Shown here in pieces: positions 23,757 to 59,500 of a DNA stretch of 64,000 bases. Within the stretch, counting starts at the first letter, position 1. Each line of letters starts with the position of its first letter. Under the pieces are notes generated by a model. That model was not told the DNA's origin and did not search any database. It worked only from the letters and a program-made list of their open reading frames with translations. The position numbers and the translations under genes are program-made. Source of the DNA: Tubulanus polymorphus (taxonomy: Eukaryota > Animalia > Nemertea). The DNA lies in the NCBI RefSeq assembly GCF_964204645.1, contig NC_134025.1, positions 11,656,001-11,720,000 on the forward strand, in the 5' to 3' direction.

Positions 23757-25002
23757 TTTTTTAGCCCACTTGGGACTTTAGTCCCAGTGGGCTATTGCGT
23801 TCACTTTTCGTCCGTAGACGGAATCCAGTTATTTTGGGAAGTTTTGAAGACGCTTCAAAACTTCTATTTGGGTTACACATGTATCTACCCTAGACACATC
23901 TTCAGCCCAAAAACTGGCCCTGTCAGAATCAAGATGGCCGACTGGCAGCCTTTGTTGTTCGCCAAAATAGCACTTTTTATACATTTTTGAACTTTTTGAG
24001 GGAAATTTTGAAGACGCTTTGATCAATTACCTTGATCTTTCGGATATATGTGAATCCCCCCAGGGCCCATCAACATAACAAAAATTGGGTCGGTCGGACT
24101 CAAGATGGCCGTCCTATGACCTTTTTAGTGCCCAAAAATGTTAATTTTGGCCCGAATTCTGAGTCCTGTAGCTTCCTACTGGTTTGCCATTTCTCATTAC
24201 AATTTGTGATGGGTGTTCTTTGGAAAGGGATGTTTTATACCTGAGACAGGTATTTTTCATCAGCCAATTATGACGCAATTGGCGACCATCTTGGTGTCAC
24301 CAGTACTCATTCGTAAGTGGGAAAAAGTTTTTCCACATTATATTGATACATAAGCGTATTTTGATACCACAATCAATTAGAAAGTTGTAGCTCATAACGT
24401 ATTCTATGATTGTGGTGAGTTTCAAGGTAATTGGATTTCGTATATGGCCACCAGGGGGCGTTGAATAATACAATATCTTAGCATTTCTTTATTATATTCG
24501 TACCTATGAATATTTTGTAACCACAATCAATTGGAAAGTTGTAGCTCATGACATCATCTATGATTGTTGCGAGTTTTAAGGACATAAGTTTTTCTATATG
24601 ATCACCAGGGGAATAGTAGAATAGTAGAATAACTTAGTATTTCCTTATTTTATTGGTACCTAGGCATATTTTGTTACCATGATCAATTGCAAAGTTGTAG
24701 TTCATGACATGTTCTATGATTGTGGTGAGTTTCGAGGTCATTGGGTTTTGAATATGGTCACCAGGGGGCGTTGAATAGTAGAATGACTTAGTATTTCCAT
24801 ATTAAATTGGTAACGAGGCATATTTTGTTATCACAATCAATTACAAAATCGTAGCTGCTGACATGTTCTATGATTGTGGTGAGTTTTAAGGTCATTGGTT
24901 TTTGTAAATGGTCACCAGCGGGCATTGAATATTGAAATTGTTAGATTGTTGAGCATTTGAAACCACTTCCCAAGTGGGCATGGTGTCCCTGGACCCCTAG
25001 TT
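23757..25002 (+). mobile_element. Helentron-associated non-autonomous element (HINE/DINE-1-like), copy 1
   Basis: 5' tttttagcccacttgggac...gtcccagtgggcta palindrome; 3' subTIR tcccaagtgggc, short hairpin and ctagtt; T-rich target; four internal ~155-bp tandem units. Confidence 0.8.
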
Positions 25003-26423
25003 TGCATTGTGAGCGGTATTCGCTTTCGTCCAAGCAGATTTTCTTAAATCTGAGAGCCTGTGCGTATGCGTATGTTGTTGCTGCAGTGAGGTGGGTGACA
25101 CTATTCTTTGTGTAGGAGGGAATGTGCGTCCGTTGGTTTTGTGTACCGGGGTATACCCTTGTTGAGAGTTTACCTGAGTTCTCAAAATCTCTCCCTTTGT
25201 AGACTTCAACGTCTAGGAAGGGTACCTTCTCCCTTGATTGTGTCAGTTTGTATTGTATGGTACGGTGTAATTGGTTCATATGTTCGAAAAATCCGAGTAG
25301 TTTATCTTCACCGTGGGTCCAGATTGAGAATATATCATCTATATATCTCCAATATAACATGGGTATAGTATTGTTTGGTGCCGAGCGCAGACATTTAGTC
25401 TCGAGATAATGCATAAATATGATCGCTAGACTTGGGCTGACTGTCGTGCCCATGGTGCAACCCTCTATATTTGAAGGCGGTGTTCGTTTTTCCCGAAAGA
25501 GAATTCATTTCTCTTCAGTATTAGATTCAGGAATTGAACGAAGGGTCTTTTGTCTGGACGGCGAACTGTGTATTGTAGCTGGAAGTCATCTAGACTCCTT
25601 AGGATGCTACTGATGGCTTCTCCGTGGGGGATGTTGGTGTATAGACTTTTGACATCCATTGTCACCAAAATTGCATCTTTGTGGAGGGGAGGGAGTTGAT
25701 TTTGTTGAGAAAGTCATTAGTATCTTGGATGTATGTTGATACTCGACTCGCGATTGGTCTCAGAAAATAGTCCAGATATTTGGATATCTTTTCCGTGGGG
25801 CCATTGTTGCCGCTTAGGATCGGTCTTCCCGGGTTGTTGACCTTGTGAATCTTCGGTAGAAGGTAGAACTCGGGGATTTTGATATCAGATCCCGGTGTTA
25901 ATTATAGCCACATAGCATGGTCTATTTCTTGGTTGTTTCTCATATCGTGTATGATTCTTTTTATTTCACTTGTGACTGAAGTAGTGTCGGGTGGGGCGAT
26001 TGACCGGTAGCTGTTGGTGTCATTTAGCTGTCTCAGAGCTTCTTTTTTGTAAGAGTCTTTGCTCATGATAGCTATGGCTCCCTCCTTTGTCACAGGGTTT
26101 TACAATGAGATCATTATTCCGATTTAGTTCCTTGATCGCTCTCATCTCGTTTTTCGATAAATTGGATTTGAATTTTTGTGTGAGATTGAGTTTTTTTAGC
26201 TCTGTACGCGTTAGTTCAATATAACGTTTGAGCCGGCGATCGCCTGATGTAAGCGGATTGAATTGGCTTTTCCCTTTGAAGGGGTGCAGTGAGTTTTTCT
26301 CACGGTTAAAAAATATATATCTCAACCTGAGGCGGCGGAAGAAGGCTTCGGCGGTTGTAAGAAGTTCGTCCTGCGTCGGTGCATTATTGGGTATGAATTT
26401 CAGACTCTTGCTTAATGCATTAA
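25001..26423 (-). pseudogene. Penelope-like element reverse transcriptase, frameshifted and 3'-truncated
   Basis: LSKSLKFIP, KPCDKGG, LPKIHKVNNPGRPI, VTMDVKSLYTNIPH, MGTTVSPSLAIIFM, WRYIDDIF, PFLDVEV, AQALRFKKIC across several frames; no GIY-YIG remains. Confidence 0.9.
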
Positions 26424-26429
26424 TTCTAG

Positions 26430-26517
26430 CCAATCAGCGCGTAACAGTGATAATTAGCCTGTGAAACAACAAGCTCTCCGATTGGTGCCCTGCGGGAGCA
26501 CCCAGAGAGTATAAATA
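26430..26517 (+). promoter_or_regulatory. Pol II promoter-like arrangement: CCAAT, ATTGG, TATAAATA
   Basis: CCAAT 26430, ATTGG 26481, TATAAATA 26510-26517, ATG at 26579. Confidence 0.5.
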
Positions 26518-26578
26518 GTTACTTATTCGCTAACTAATCACTAACTGCTCTACATTTGACTCGCTCTGTATCAGTGTT

Positions 26579-28600
26579 ATGGCTCTTGACGACATGTTCA
26601 CAGAAACCGAAATTGACGAGATGATGAGAGACCTGGACTCAACCAACGCTACCGCGCCGCCGCCATCAGAACCGCTGCACCCGTCTACAGAAACCAGATC
26701 TACGAGACCTGAACACTAATCGGCTCTGAAAATGTACGAGACGGAGGGTACTACAACACCAACATCACGGCTCGTTACTAAGAATCGGTTTGGTCGCTGG
26801 TGAGGTGCCGAAACACTTCAAAATCCACCTACCCATCAGACTGATGGAAGCAGACAGGAATCCAGATGTCACGAAAGACTGGATTCGCAGACTCCACCAG
26901 ACGAGTCTGGATCTCAAGGGCGGATCTAGGGGGGTGGACCAGTCCACCCCTTGAAAAATCAAAAGTGCCCTCCTGGCTTTCAGAAATTTTCTGTACGGAA
27001 CTGGACACTCGCCACTGGAAAGATTGCTTCGAGTATTCTTAATCTTAGGATGCCTACTCAAAAGCGTATCTGGAAAGAACGGGAGCGTGCTTTGCAGTGT
27101 GAAGCAAAACGCTGCAAGCCGTTAATGAGTTTTTTGTGAGTTTTTCATCCCTCTTCTCACAGTCGTCTGAAATGTTTTTCCTCGATAGTTGAAATTATAG
27201 GCGATTAGGGCTAAAATGCTGCGCTGTTTTATGTTTAGCAAAACCTTTGAAAATGGCATTCATGCTGTGCTGTCATATCTAAGGGCACCTATAATGCCCG
27301 AGAAATTTATAATAAAAAGGGCACATCTTATAAGCGTATATAGACGATGAAAATTGTGAGAAGGGCGTGAATTCTGAAATTGGGGCACCTATCATGCCAG
27401 AGAAATTTATGAAAAGGGCACATCTTATAGCGTATATACAATGAAAACTGTGAAAAAGGCATATTCTGATATATCTTTTCTGGAAGGAATAAGGGCACGT
27501 GCAATGTCAGAAAAGTTGATAAAAAGGGCACATTTTATAGCGTATATATACGATGAAAACTGTGAAAAAGGCATATTCAGTTATATCTTTTCTGGAATAA
27601 GGCACGTGCAATGTCAGAAAAGTTGATAAAAAGGGCACATTTTCTAGCTTATATACGATGAAAACTTTGTGTAGGGCACCTATCCATTTAATTTTTTTAT
27701 GACGTGGCACCTAGGCCTAGTGTCCGTATTGTATTCAGTTTAAACATACCTGTATAAGATGTGTATTCTATGTTGTAAATCAAGTATATAGGCAACGCAA
27801 CCCCATGGGTACGGGCCTGAATAAGAAATAAGCTTGTGAAACTGAAGATTTTCATTGACAATCGTATTCATTGAGGATACATCTTTTCATGAGGTGCTTG
27901 TTAAAAATTTGTACCTACGTAGTTTATGACCTTAAGACTTTATTTTGTAAGAAATGCTGTAGTTTAAAATTTGAATATTTTATCAGAGGGAAGGAAATGC
28001 AATAAAACCTGACAAATTATTGTGCAATTACGAGAGTAGAGTATAAATAAAAAGATGATGTGTATGAAACTCAAATTTTATGTGCTTGTTTTTTCCCTAT
28101 ATGTGGCACCTTCCTGGACCCTAAGGTTACAAATTGCAGTCTAAATATTGACTTCTTTTCTCCTAGAATGGACCCTCTGAAATGCGGGAAAACACATTTA
28201 AGAACACCAAATTTTCATAATTTTCTGGTGGTGGTCCCCCAGATGGGGGTGTGGGCTTCGCGCCTTCGGCGCTCGCAATGTGCCTTCGAAAGGTGTGCCC
28301 TACTTTGTCCTGTCCACCCCCCTACAAAGATCCTGGATCCGCCCTTGGATCTGATGAAAATTTCGGCCTGCCACCACGAAGTGATGGCTGACCAAAACCG
28401 CCTGAAGGTGGAGGAGATTGCAGCTGAGATCTTAAAGAAGCCCAGCTGAAAGAAGCGGAAGCTAGTGCCGTCACACCGAAATCAGCTCCAGCTCAGCCGA
28501 CACCAACCCTACGACGGCACCGAAGAGACACCCGAGTAGGGGACATCACCAATCCGGCGGCCGCTCTAACTACCGGGGCAAGGGACCGAGAAGAGAATAA
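26579..28600 (+). pseudogene. Decayed ORF1-like gene resembling the PLE N-terminal domain, split by a DNA transposon
   Basis: Removing 26915-28347 plus one GATCT restores ...QHHGSLLRIGLVAGEVPKHFKIHLPIRLMEADRNPDVTKDWIRRLHQTSLD|LMKISACHHEVM...; acidic N-terminus and RG-rich tail (SRGHHQSGGRSNYRGKGPRRE*) need frameshifts/stop read-through. Confidence 0.55.
26915..28347. mobile_element. Non-autonomous hAT (Tip100-like termini) with internal tandem repeats
   Basis: TIRs CAAGGGCGGATCTAGG / CCTGGATCCGCCCTTG, flanked by GATCT; roughly 100-115-bp aaagggcacat-containing tandem units at 27280-27710. Confidence 0.8.
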
Positions 28601-28892
28601 ACCATTTTCTCTCTCTCACAACACACACTCTCTCAACAGTTCTTATCAGGACTACCCCTATGTCCTAGACAGACTTAGTCCATCTCAGTCCGACGCAAAT
28701 CTATTAAGTGTTTAGAAATAGATTTCTATCTGAACAGTCGTTCCCTTGAACCAAACTCCGACGTTAACCGTCCGCGTGTCTAGAAACAAGGCTCATATAT
28801 ATGTGTTCACAGTTTATGTGATTTTATTTTTTATTAGGGTTTTCTGTTACATCACAGAAAACCCTATTGAGATTCGCGTGTTTCTTATTATT

Positions 28893-33000: not shown

Positions 33001-33511
33001 TTTCCATTTTATTTTTTCTTCACAACGAACACACACGAGCCTCCAGCATGCATTATACATTATATGTATACAACACACGCTCACATACAGATAACAGTGT
33101 TGGTCACACAACTAGGTCGATTACCTACCTATCGATTACACTCACAGAGCCACTTACAGCTAAGCCCTTTGTTGTACAGCTGTTATAAACCCGATCTACT
33201 CAGCTAATCCAGCAGTGTATCTAACCATACAACACACGGAACTCTGCTCACAGTATCACGCACACACATTCAGTCTCACTCTCCCTCTTGGGGAGAAACA
33301 ACCAATGGAAAAACCACTCAACTGGGTCACGCATCAGCCGAGGTAAACCCTCCGCTACAACTGCCTCCCAGCACAACAGATTTGTGGTCAACCTATCAGA
33401 TCACGTGGTTAGCAAAACCATCATTAATGCATTAAGCAAGGGTCTGCAATTCATACCCAATAATGCACCGACGCAGAAGGAGGAACTTCTCACGGCCGCC
33501 GAAGCCTTCAT

Positions 33512-35210: not shown

Positions 35211-35335
35211 AGCCTTCTTAGGAACTAAATCCGAAGAATGATCTCATTGTAAAACCCTGTGACAAAGGGGGGAGCCATAGCTATCATGAGCAAAGACTCT
35301 TACAAAAAAGAAGCTCTGAGACAGCTAAATGACAC

Positions 35336-35367
35336 CAGGGAGGTGGGAGTTCACTCCCACCTCCCTG
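35336..35367. mobile_element. 32-bp palindromic insertion with 7-bp TSD (P-element-like)
   Basis: atgacac|CAGGGAGGTGGGAGttcaCTCCCACCTCCCTG|atgacac; absent from the paralogous PLE copy near 26015. Confidence 0.8.
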
Positions 35368-35719
35368 ATGACACCAACAGCTAACGGTCAATCGCCCCAC
35401 CCGACACCACTTCAGTCACAAGTGAAATAAAAAGAATCATAGACGATATGAGAAACAACCAAGAAATAGACCATGCTATGTGGCTATATCTAACACCGGG
35501 ATCTGATATCAAAATCCCTGAGTTCTACCTTCTACCGAAGATTGACAAGGTCAACAACCCGGGAAGACCGATCCTAAGCGGCAACAATGGCCCCACGCAA
35601 AAAGATATCCAAATATCTGGACTATTTTCTGAGACCAATCGCGAGTTGAGTATCAACATACATCCAAGATACTAATGACTTTCTCAACAAAATCAACTCC
35701 CTGAATCTCCTTCCTGAAT

Positions 35720-36840
35720 TATAATAATAATAAAAATAATCATAAAAAAGTTAATACACTTATACCCATTCTAAATTCTATAATATTTCAAATAATAATT
35801 TTATTCTATTTTATAAATTTATATTCAGTGTTAGATTGTTAAACTGTTTAAGTATTAAATTGAGTAGATTGTATATTCATAAACTAAATGATAAAATAAG
35901 AAATTAGACTGTTAAATTAGCTAAAAATATAAAATATATTAGTTGAAAATATAAAATATATTGGCTGAAATATTAGTTAATTAAAAAGGGGGTTTTAAGT
36001 ATTAAGGTATCTAATACGTATTAAATACGTATCAAATACAAATTATGCTTTATTTCTGAAATATTGAAGTCTCATAAGTAATTTATTCATATATGATATT
36101 AGTAGTATCTTTACGCAGCACTAGACTAATATGAGTGATACTAAGTTAGTTGGTTTATTGTTTTTCTAGTATTATTTTAGTCAAATGTAAAGAAACTTAA
36201 AGTAAACAAGAATTAATAAAAAAACATTAGAATTATAATAACTTTCTTTAACCAATACTATCATATTCAATTCTAATGTTTTTCTAGTTGAATCTATTTA
36301 AAATATTATTTAACCCAGTTAGCAAATAGAAACAATAACTAGTATCATTGTAAAGATAAATAACATATTCTAGTGCTGTGTAAAGAATATGATATTTATC
36401 TGGTAGATTCATAGAATTACTATAAAAATAAATATATATTTGAATATAATTTATGCCTTTCCAGTGTTGAAGTATAAAATATATTGATAGAAAATATAAA
36501 TTATATAAGCTGAAAATATATGATATATTAGTTAAAAAATATGAATATGAAAGAATTTAGAATGTGTATAAATGTACGAGTGTACAAATGGTACGAATGG
36601 TACGAGTTCTTCCAATTCTTCCAATTCGTACACTCATACACTTATAAATATTAAATTGAGTAGATTGTGTATTCATAAATTAAGAATAAGACTGTTAAAT
36701 TGGTTGAAAATATAAAATATATTGGCTGAAATATGTTTAAAATATTAGTTAATTAGAAAAGGGGGTTTTAGGTATTAATGTATTAAATACATATTAATAC
36801 GTATTTAATTTATTTCCTCTGTGAAATTTAAATTATTATA
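35720..36840 (+). other. Extremely AT-rich non-coding continuation of the virus-like segment, with hairpins and direct repeats
   Basis: Contiguous with the small ORF in copy B; IRs aaaaacattagaatt/aattctaatgttttt and tgtacgagtgtac/gtacactcataca; repeated aaattgagtagattgt and aaaagggggtttt blocks. Confidence 0.6.
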
Positions 36841-37045
36841 TTGCTAGACCCTCGTGAAACTGGCTGTGTTACCCAGCCTCTAACTGTCCAGCGGACCCGA
36901 ACATCCAAACATATAACTTATTCAGTTTTATTTCTACTGTGAATATTTAAACTACATACTAATGTATACATATTGCTATACCCTCGTGGAACTGGCTGTG
37001 TTGCCCAGCCTTTAACGGTCCAGCGGACCCAAACACCCAAACAAA
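36841..37045. repeat. Tandem dimer of a ~131-bp unit with two short hairpins
   Basis: ttgcta(g/t)accctcgtg...ggctgtgtt.cccagcc...gtccagcggac occurs twice; also at 57540-57745. Confidence 0.75.
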
Positions 37046-56566: not shown

Positions 56567-59500
56567 ACTGTTTAAGTATCAAATTGAGTAGATTGTACAT
56601 TCATAAACTAAATGATAGAATAAGAAATTAGACTGTTAAATTAGCTAAAAATGTAAAATACATTAGTTGAAAATATAAAATATATTGGCTGAAATATTAG
56701 TTAATTAAAAAGGGGGTTTTAAGTAATAAGGTATCTAAAACTTATCAAATACGAATCAAATACAAATTATGCTTTATTTCTGAAATATTGAAGTCTCATA
56801 AGTAATTTATTCATATATGATATTAGTAGTATCTTTACGCAGCATTAGAATAATATGAGTGATACTAAGTTAGTTGGTTTATTGTTTTTCTAGTATTATT
56901 TTAGTCAAATGTAAAGAAACTTAAAGTAAACAAGAATTAATAAAAAAAACATTAGAATTATAATAACTTTCTTTAACCAATACTAGCATATTCAATTCTA
57001 ATGTTTTTCTAGTTGAATCTATTTAAAAAATTATTTAACCCAGTTAGCAAATAGAAACAATAACTAGTATCATTGTAAAGATAAATAACATATTCTAGTG
57101 CTTTGTAAAGAATATGATATTTATCTGGCAGATTCATAGAATTACTATAAAAATAAATATATATTTGAATATAATTTATACCTTTCCAGTGTTGAAGTAT
57201 AGAATATATTGATAGAAAATATAAATTATATAAGCTGAAAATATAAAATATATTAGTTAAAAAATATGAATATGAAAGAATTTAGAATGTGTATAAGTGT
57301 ACGAGTGTACGAATGGTACGAGTTCTTCCAATTCTTCCTATTCGTACACTCATACACTTATAAATATTAAATTGAGTAGATTGTGTATTCATAAATTAAG
57401 AATAAGACTGTTAAATTGGTTGAAAATATAAAAATATTAGCTGAAATATGTTTAAAAAAGGGGGTTTTAGGTATAAATGTATTCAATACGTATTAATACA
57501 TATTTAATTTATTTCCTCTGTGAAATTTAAATTATTATATTGCTAGACCCTCGGGAAACTGGCTGTGTTACCCAGCCTCTAACGGTCCAGCGGACCCGAA
57601 CATCCAAACATATAACTTATTCAGTTTTATTTCTACTGTGAATATTAAAACTACATACTAATGTATACATATTGCTATACCCTCATGGAACTGGCTGTGT
57701 TGCCCAGCCTCTAACGGTCCAGCGGACCCTAACACCTAAACAAACCAGTGGCGTAATGACTCACCACACCAGTGGTTGTAGTGAACACATATATTTGCGA
57801 CTTCATTATCTGTCACGCATGGTTAGAGGTCATTTTTGCGACGTTAATTTACGTCACAAGTGGTAATGAAGAGGTTAAAAGCTAATCACCACCTAGTCAG
57901 TAACCTGTCTGTGGTTTAGTTTCACGATTGGATATGTTGGTATAAAAAGCCCATCCGATTATAAAAGGCTTACCACCAACGATTAGGTAACTAACTAACC
58001 ACCACCAACATTTAAGTTACTCCAGCAAGTAGTATGCCTAGTGACTAATTGGGCCATAGGCCTAATGGATTTTCTACCTGATTTTCTATTTGAAAACAAA
58101 TTTTCTATTTGTTTTGGCGCTATAAAAAAATGATGCTTTTATTTTGCGAGTCAAGAAAACAAATATTTAGTGCGAGAAAACAAATTTTGATTTGTTTTGG
58201 TTAGGTTGAGAAGAGCGGTGCGATGCAGATTAGAGCAATTCTATATCCGACTGCCAATGGAAACGTGTTGTAGTAGCCTTAGCCAGGGCTGCCATTCTGT
58301 GAAATGTATTTGTACTATCAGTAACAAATCGAATGTTTTTCAGTAACATTTCATTGAAATATGAAAGAAAATGTTCAAATTAATGAGTAATCAACAGTAA
58401 GACTCTCAGTAACATTTTTCATATTTCTGTATGCATCAAATAAAAAAAATCATTATTTCTCAATACAAAATAGTAGACCCAACAAATACTGAAAATCAGG
58501 AACAGTTGGCAGCTCTGCTTTAGCGTGTTCATTGCATATAAGAATGGCAGACAGCTTGCATCTTTGTAGATTCACACTTTTGACATCAACATTACATGTA
58601 CATATCTACATAGACTAGAATGATGTGGAGAAATGAAATCTGATTAGGGGCAGTCCATAAAATAAAAGACTTCCACACAAGATAACAAAAATTTTACCCC
58701 ATGTCCACAGAATGTTTACTTTGCACTAACCCTTGTCCATCAAACAAAAAAAAACAATTAAGGATATCGGATATCCAGATTTAACAAGGATGTTCATGAC
58801 AACCTCCCTCCCCTTGCCGACGAAATTCAAAATTTCACAAGCTCCCCTCCCCACTCGACCTTGGACATCTTTTATTGACAGCTCCTATAGATAATACTTC
58901 ATTAGCCGAAACAAAATTTGTAAAAAAATAATTGTATCCTTCTCAATAATAATTCCAGACAATCGTCATAAGAACACAAATGCCATAACAATTCCATATG
59001 TCTCATTCAATAGATTGATTTTAAGTCAGCTAGGCTGCCATCGCATCACTTATCATAATGACAAACATGTGTATCATGTCAGTTGGTAGTCAGATGTTCA
59101 ACAACTGACCTGACCTTGTATCGTAATGACATGCCTGCACTATATTCTCGACCTCACCAAATTCAGTCTCGAGAAATCAAATATTCAGAGAGAGAAAACA
59201 AACTTGTTTTCTTGCTATCGTACGGAATTTCTTCCACAGTGTTTGCCCTTGAATCAGTCACAATAGCCAGCGCAATGCGAACTTGAAGTAATCATCATTG
59301 CAACTTAATAAGTGGAGAACGCAGATAGCCTAGGTTACCCATAAAAGATGTCCCGTTGATGATCACCCGCTTGATCACCTGCTTGAAGGAGGATGTCCAT
59401 AACAACACCCCCTAATTCCCCTTGTCCACTAGTCCAAATTTCACTAAACCCCCACTGGATATCTTTTATTGACAGACTATAAGTCTTATAGCGAGAAATC

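Follow-up and report, generated by a model that had tools for sequence, protein, structure and literature searches.

Penelope-like elements (PLEs) that have two open reading frames (ORFs) and lack an endonuclease (EN) are already known, and inverted, 5'-truncated copies are typical of PLEs, according to the available portions of PMC6431247 and PMC8557442, respectively. Here we describe such an element in a 64,000-nucleotide stretch of the genome of the nemertean Tubulanus polymorphus (assembly GCF_964204645.1, contig NC_134025.1, positions 11,656,001 to 11,720,000 of the forward strand; hereafter the window). The closest described systems are the EN-less offshoots of PLEs with a C-terminal EN (Neptune/Nematis-type), such as MjPLE01, and Athena and Coprina; as far as the same portions of the two papers (PMC8557442, PMC6431247) describe them, they share with our element a DKG reverse transcriptase (RT), partial tandems that form pseudo-long terminal repeats (pseudo-LTRs), inverted 5'-truncated copies, two ORFs, the absence of an endonuclease and a length of 4–6 kb. 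In contrast to them, the element is interstitial, has a histone-like promoter and has no telomeric-repeat stretch or hammerhead core that we could find, and its ORF1 is set off not by a frameshift but by a stop codon, a stem-loop of histone type and a spacer of 490 nt. The available parts of PMC5054213 and PMC13525598 describe 3' processing of the histone type as confined to replication-dependent histone mRNAs; the literature searched yielded no report of such a stem-loop in PLEs or Polintons (subscription journals lay outside the search), and a 2026 preprint on retrozymes does not contain the word 'histone'. Within the window, a full-length but broken copy of an EN-less PLE lies on the + strand, with an inverted 5'-truncated copy in front of it; the window copy is dead. 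We consider it fairly likely that it is the remnant of a two-gene EN-less PLE with a histone-like ORF1 promoter and hairpin, from which a non-polyadenylated ORF1 message would be made by way of the host stem-loop binding protein (SLBP) and U7 RNA. The family is a real, new variety of PLE that probably mimics the histone pathway.

The family was defined by searches of the animal's own genome, and its copies are named by contig (C1, C2, C4-C7, C9 and C10). A unit spans ~4.47 kb and comprises, in this order, a leader, the promoter, ORF1 (208 aa), the stem-loop ~42 nt past the ORF1 stop, a run resembling the histone downstream element (HDE), a spacer of ~490 nt, ORF2 (622 aa) and a 3' region of ~900 nt that doubles as the upstream pseudo-LTR. 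ORF1 is intact in C9 and C5 and has no intron. Beyond subfamily A the host carries subfamily B (on C6, intact, 44% identical) and subfamily C (on C1 and C4, decayed).

The earlier note on this DNA had proposed a histone-type 3' stem-loop after ORF1, and it is indeed there. In 38.4 Mb of shuffled window DNA a relaxed pattern for such hairpins had five matches; its single match in the real window is this very hairpin, and a pattern so rare in shuffled DNA argues against a chance occurrence. Five subfamily A copies cover the hairpin: it is perfect in three (C9, C5 and C2), carries a G-U pair in the window and is broken in C10. The perfect form, AGTCCT-TATC-AGGACT, is identical at 14 of 16 nt to the GGTCCT-TATC-AGGACC of the host's clustered H2A, H2B and H4 genes, with which it also shares CAAC and AC flanks; the TATC loop, previously held against a histone-type identity, loses its force as an objection since those host stem-loops carry it too. 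Subfamily B has AGCCCT-TGTC-AGGGCT, with one compensatory pair, and subfamily C has AGTCCT-TCTA-AGGACT in one copy. Between the three subfamilies 13, 14 and 12 of the 16 nt are identical, as against 7-9 of the preceding 35 nt, and the hairpin has been conserved while synonymous sites between A and B became saturated (third codon positions of ORF1 are 35% identical). The changes it has undergone sit at positions that also vary among the host histones. Scored with the Rfam Histone3 model (RF00032), the C2 copy reached 24.1 bits (E 0.011) and the window copy 15.6 bits (E 6.1), both below the 34-bit gathering cut-off, which the host's clustered H2B (31.7) and H3 (27.8) likewise miss.

The earlier note saw no clear U7 element beyond the hairpin. 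The run is weak, but one, CCTAGACAGAC, is present at the right distance (Table 1), scoring 7.9 bits in the window (background fraction 0.001), 6.1 in C2, 3.4 in C9 and C5 (0.007), -2.1 in subfamily B (0.06), and 6.3 and 8.2 in subfamily C. A weak HDE reduces SLBP-assisted cleavage in vitro but does not abolish it, according to the available part of PMC7026596, and SLBP is encoded in the host. An AATAAA, raised as a further objection, occurs in the window and in both subfamily C copies but not in C9, C5, C2, C10 or subfamily B, and the intact C9 unit has none near ORF1. The stem-loop is far better conserved than the HDE, which in subfamily B is near background, and this would suit an arrangement in which the hairpin binds SLBP without U7 cleavage and serves translation, storage or localisation to histone locus bodies, or acts as a decoy inside a longer RNA. 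We judge this improbable: purine runs of HDE type stand at the same offset (a 13-14 nt anchor) in all three subfamilies, those of B and C agree at 10 of 12 nt, and no poly(A) signal follows ORF1 in the intact unit.

The promoter is the second histone-like feature, and the small gene does have the CCAAT/TATA promoter of its own that had been claimed for it, with CCAAT, ATTGG and TATAAATA all confirmed. The promoters of subfamilies A and B align with a score of 138.5, the maximum in 500 shuffles being 49. A search of 2.85 Mb of fetched, partly redundant DNA for the layout ATTGG-N7-12-GGGAGC-N7-13-YATAAATA met it in the PLE copies, in a metagenome relative (L176) and in the host's clustered H2B promoter, and nowhere else; the whole-region alignment between subfamily A and L176 is marginal, being reached by 3 of 500 shuffles. 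Because promoter and hairpin both match host histone genes closely, the element likely borrows the histone message pathway. Its likeness to metazoan replication-dependent histone genes (RF00032) extends to the lack of introns, the CCAAT/TATA promoter of H2B layout, a 6-bp stem with a 4-nt loop 40-50 nt past the stop, the CAAC/AC flanks and a purine run 11-14 nt downstream. Unlike those genes, it encodes a non-histone transposon protein, has an A-U base pair instead of G-C and a weaker HDE, and its ORF1 lies upstream of a second gene that needs read-through.

The ORF1 protein resembles the N-terminal domain of PLE proteins, as previously suggested: a profile was made from 39 long N-termini taken from 130 proteins of the RT search, and with it three ORF1s scored 26.4, 24.9 and 17.1 bits, as against 13.1 for the best of 900 shuffles. 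The wider claim, of a bipartite PLE with a stand-alone ORF1, its own promoter and a conserved stem-loop, is supported at the level of sequence. All four ORF1s that could be aligned (34-45% identity) end in RRE followed by the stop, and ORF1 can therefore be regarded as a real stand-alone protein. Its structural model shows a confident helical hairpin (~residues 44-143) with disordered ends, for which fold searches returned generic helical hairpins only (Foldseek best E 0.67; VIA best Z 9.3). A first word search with ORF1, a Pfam scan and scans of viral contigs gave no match, and representative and profile searches recovered two homologues elsewhere (P0123 and P0134), known as proteins only, with no DNA context. 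A separate ORF1 also occurs in three EN+ metagenome elements (L192, L193 and L199), in which cores resembling hammerheads were recognised by eye and the histone hairpin is absent; a separate ORF1 in itself is not new.

That the element is a PLE follows from its RT type, its pseudo-LTR tandems and its inverted 5'-truncated copies, the latter two seen across C9, C5, C2, C4, C1, C6 and the window. In its intact form ORF2 begins with MGRRK, carries the DKG motif and ends in ...DILVRARCV-stop, where its relatives P0004 and P0005 terminate as well; RVT_1 is its sole domain in a Pfam scan, and it stops before the position at which relatives carry the GIY-YIG endonuclease. The RT search returned 1,949 homologues, and GIY-YIG (PF01541) is present on many of 120 among the matches listed. 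In a tree made by a quick method from 52 of 86 usable rows, ORF2 groups with the EN-less P0004, P0005 and P0006 (support 100, 4 rows) inside an EN-less group of 18 rows (85). The C-terminal GIY-YIG of EN+ PLEs (Penelope/Poseidon, Neptune, Nematis and Hydra) is absent from ORF2, and the element has none of the Naiad/Chlamys traits (N-terminal GIY-YIG, CxC motif, DKA), having DKG, no endonuclease and an ORF1 homologous to the helical N-domain. Copies are interstitial, not telomeric: TTAGGG/CCCTAA, the sole repeat tested, is missing from the unit and does not occur doubled in 12 loci, in contrast to the Athena/Coprina trait of attachment to telomeres by reverse-complement telomeric repeats. Targeting of microsatellites or telomeres was discarded, given that the sequences flanking the 3' ends vary from copy to copy; two of the flanks listed are microsatellites. 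No Rfam ribozyme hit was obtained in three loci, and the single match to CTGANGA..GAAA falls within the RT ORF, although minimal hammerhead variants could escape such a search. Tandem two-ORF EN+ PLEs (an 820-830 aa RT-EN with an upstream ORF of 510-660 aa) lie at contig ends (L163, L164 and L170; G000:C4:1-70 kb and others), and PLE RTs were met at 15 loci of prokaryotic genome assemblies (L293-L307), likely eukaryotic contamination.

The linkage of ORF1 to an RT, claimed from the window alone, is upheld by the genomic copies; the divergent layout is not. ORF1 and RT lie on one strand in all four other ORF1-bearing copies with adjacent RT sequence (C9, C5, C2 and C10), while the C7 copy, cut off ahead of the stem-loop, has no RT in its vicinity. 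Since the + strand copy of the window continues into RT fragments of its own, separated by later insertions, the RT on the minus strand is a 5'-truncated copy in inverted orientation; C1 and C4 show comparable inversions at different breakpoints. The palindrome at the end of the minus-strand RT, singled out in the earlier note, is present but nothing special: it consists of RT codons, is found again at 33424 as well as in other copies, and is one of 47 perfect 12-bp palindromes in the window. The layout at 26424 would agree with an ORF1 natively divergent from the RT, or with a host gene beside a PLE, as would the intact subfamily B ORF1 on C6, which has no RT within ~7 kb downstream. Both ideas are very improbable and already largely refuted, in view of the same-strand linkage, the window's own + strand RT fragments, the homology of ORF1 to PLE N-domains and a subfamily C copy that retains 46 nt from the 3' region of the element; the single subfamily B copy could be domesticated. 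At that locus (L158:2300-3140; G000:C6:20.334 Mb) the ORF1 has kept the conserved promoter and hairpin and is possibly domesticated, or else a non-autonomous remnant.

Five copies lack ORF1 (three on C4, one each on C6 and C1); in them the hairpin is also gone and the promoter is joined to ORF2 through two different deletions. Four of the five have open frames of 643-652 codons, and such copies may supply RT. The two independent deletions of ORF1 and hairpin (L019-L021, L025 and L022) start near the predicted transcription start and leave the RT directly under the promoter, as in L176. A spliced-intron origin of these copies was rejected: there are two different junctions, one GA..AG and the other lacking splice ends, and the first 1,720 nt contain no GTRAG donor. 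The spacer of ORF1-bearing units holds five upstream ATGs, with no canonical donor ahead of it. In C9 and C5 the RT is frameshifted; the extra base of C9 is absent from collapsed contigs of three sequencing runs, so its frameshift may be peculiar to this copy or an error of the assembly. We considered, but do not claim, that ORF1-intact and RT-intact copies complement each other.

A number of observations weigh against the histone-pathway reading. The host's own histone HDEs score 8-27 bits (each left out in turn), compared with which those of the PLE are weak, and scores of 3.2 and 3.6 were obtained at two sites that are probably due to chance; searches for a host U7 gene (Rfam and two patterns) gave no convincing candidate. 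In subfamily C an AATAAA lies over the stop. The hairpin is decayed in C10 and in the subfamily C copy on C4, its covariation is not significant (matched by 132 of 500 shuffles), and no canonical stem-loop lies upstream of the RT in 78 metagenome loci and 15 loci from metagenome-assembled genomes, so that the hairpin has so far been shown only in this host. Neither subfamily B nor subfamily C has an RT close by; in the closest relative, L176, the promoter directly precedes the RT and ORF1 is absent; and the promoter pattern was defined after the sequences had been seen. The objection that the stem closes with A-T holds in so far as all nine host histone stem-loops seen close with G-C, but A-T-closed stems with a near-perfect HDE exist elsewhere in the genome. 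The A-T-closed pattern has 26 genome-wide matches (24 in the reversed control), 22 of them with perfect stems and many being copies of a few repeats; six follow a PLE ORF1, 14 are non-PLE sites with HDEs of at least 9 bits and six look like chance. Lastly, when 45 nt of RNA beyond the hairpin are included, a competing fold is predicted to prevail in the window copy (stem probability 0.1) and in subfamily C (0.0), the hairpin being predicted to persist in C9, C2 and subfamily B. These competing folds, a shared GACT..AGTC inverted motif just downstream, the two decayed hairpins and the many copies in which ORF1 and hairpin are deleted would fit a promoter and hairpin captured once from a histone or Maverick gene that now have another role (terminator, RT-binding site or refolding switch) or are decaying relics. 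We hold such a capture to be unlikely, because the positions invariant in histones, the loop of 4 nt and the CAAC/AC flanks have been kept despite synonymous saturation, and a generic hairpin would not need them.

On the reading we favour, RNA polymerase II would start ~25-30 nt past the TATA box, SLBP would bind the hairpin and U7-directed cleavage ~5 nt beyond it would give an ORF1 mRNA of ~780 nt. Cleavage would be leaky because the base of the stem is A-U and the HDE weak, and uncut RNA, from read-through or from tandems, would serve as RT message and as template for transposition. ORF1, with its predicted helical hairpin and basic tail, would bind RNA as a coat or chaperone and be produced in larger amounts than RT. 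In the most speculative step, histone-type control would bias expression to dividing cells, in which an EN-less RT could find 3' ends. EN+ PLEs of the same genome could supply nicks for interstitial insertion. A more far-reaching version remains tentative and rather doubtful: a clade of EN-less PLEs would run on the replication-dependent histone programme, with an H2B-type promoter and an SLBP/U7 end giving abundant ORF1 in S phase or oocytes, a deliberately weak HDE deciding between ORF1 mRNA and full-length RT/template RNA, and timing to S phase in place of the lost endonuclease, this being one of several unrelated mobile elements of the genome (Maverick-like, Merlin and MULE-like) to do so.

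The features of the window copy are collected in Table 1; CCAAT, ATTGG, TATAAATA, the ATG, the insertion, the stop and the hairpin were all confirmed in its letters. Removal of the 1.4-kb insertion does not restore ORF1, as had been supposed, for compared with intact C9 deletions of 8, 16, 15 and 3 nt and in-frame stops remain. The ORF1 stop TAA (28598-28600) overlaps the AATAAA. The insertion has inverted ends of CAAGGG type. The duplicated 65-nt motif at the 3' end of the element (L007:9540-9725; in the window at 36791-37043 and 57508-57742) forms small hairpins and has no Rfam hit. Several pseudo-LTRs share their first base, at unit position ~3676, which suggests a fixed RNA 5' end or a cleavage site.

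Table 1. Coordinates of the PLE copies and associated features in the window (MITE, miniature inverted-repeat transposable element).
Feature	Position	Strand	Remarks
Inverted, 5'-truncated ORF2 (RT) copy	25001..26424	-	frameshifted; 94% identity to C9 copy
Palindrome TTAATGCATTAA	26412..26423		native ORF2 codons (INALS); adjoins inversion junction at 26424
Promoter and leader	26424..26578	+	CCAAT 26430, ATTGG 26481, GGGAGC 26494, TATAAATA 26510
ORF1 5' part (PLE N-domain homologue)	26579..26914	+	ATG 26579; one stop and an 8-nt deletion break the frame
MITE-like secondary insertion	26915..28347		1,433 bp; 16-bp inverted ends; 5-bp GATCT duplication; empty site in C9, C5
ORF1 3' part	28348..28600	+	basic R/G-rich tail, RRE-stop end; 16-, 15- and 3-nt deletions
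Histone-type stem-loop TCAAC-AGTTCT-TATC-AGGACT-ACCCC	28633..28658	+	hairpin proper 28638-28653
Weak HDE-like run CCTAGACAGAC	28664..28674	+	CCAAGACAGAC in C2, C10; host CC(A/C)AGAAAG(A/G)G
ORF1-ORF2 spacer, first part	28675..28835	+	interrupted by a further ~4.2 kb insertion
Spacer remainder and ORF2 N-terminus, same + strand copy	33001..33509	+	ORF2 ATG lost
ORF2 (RT) fragment of + strand copy	35222..35702	+	
3' end of + strand copy	36791..37043	+	carries duplicated 65-nt motif

Histone-type ends were also observed in other mobile elements of this genome. In Maverick/Polinton-like regions (DNA_pol_B_2, IVa2-like ATPase, PC4 and a weak adenain hit; L290-L292 at G000:C3:21.226-21.256 Mb, L049-L052, L057, L058, L065, L066, L265-L270, L277 and L279-L283) small RING-like genes end in histone stem-loops, often A-T closed and with a near-perfect HDE, CAAGAAAGAG, several of which beat the host's clustered histone genes on RF00032. 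A stem-loop with HDE also ends a Merlin/IS1595-type transposase gene (PF12762; L054, L055), a remnant assigned by eye to a transposase of Mutator-like element (MULE) type (L056, L067) and small, mutually similar ORFs without Pfam hits (L264, L276, L077), and occurs at two sites without a long ORF (L071, L072).

Two further systems invite comparison. Naiad PLEs with selenocysteine insertion sequences (SECIS), as the available part of PMC8557442 presents them, resemble the element as PLEs that take up a host mRNA cis-element otherwise reserved for a small class of genes; SECIS recodes UGA, whereas here the borrowed element would set 3' end formation and timing, and the N-terminal GIY-YIG is missing. 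The pairing of U7 with HDE-like motifs in human LTR12, in the available part of PMC11417402, likewise links U7, CCAAT/NF-Y promoters and retroelements, but U7 represses transcription there, whereas here a full stem-loop and HDE follow a coding region.

If the histone-pathway reading is true, a retrotransposon gene with a histone-like promoter and a conserved stem-loop and HDE would break the rule that this type of processing is exclusive to histones, and PLEs would have a new way to set the ratio of ORF1 to RT besides frameshifting or splicing. It also offers a testable idea for how EN-less PLEs spread away from telomeres. The PLE N-terminal domain, otherwise uncharacterised, becomes available as a natural stand-alone protein.

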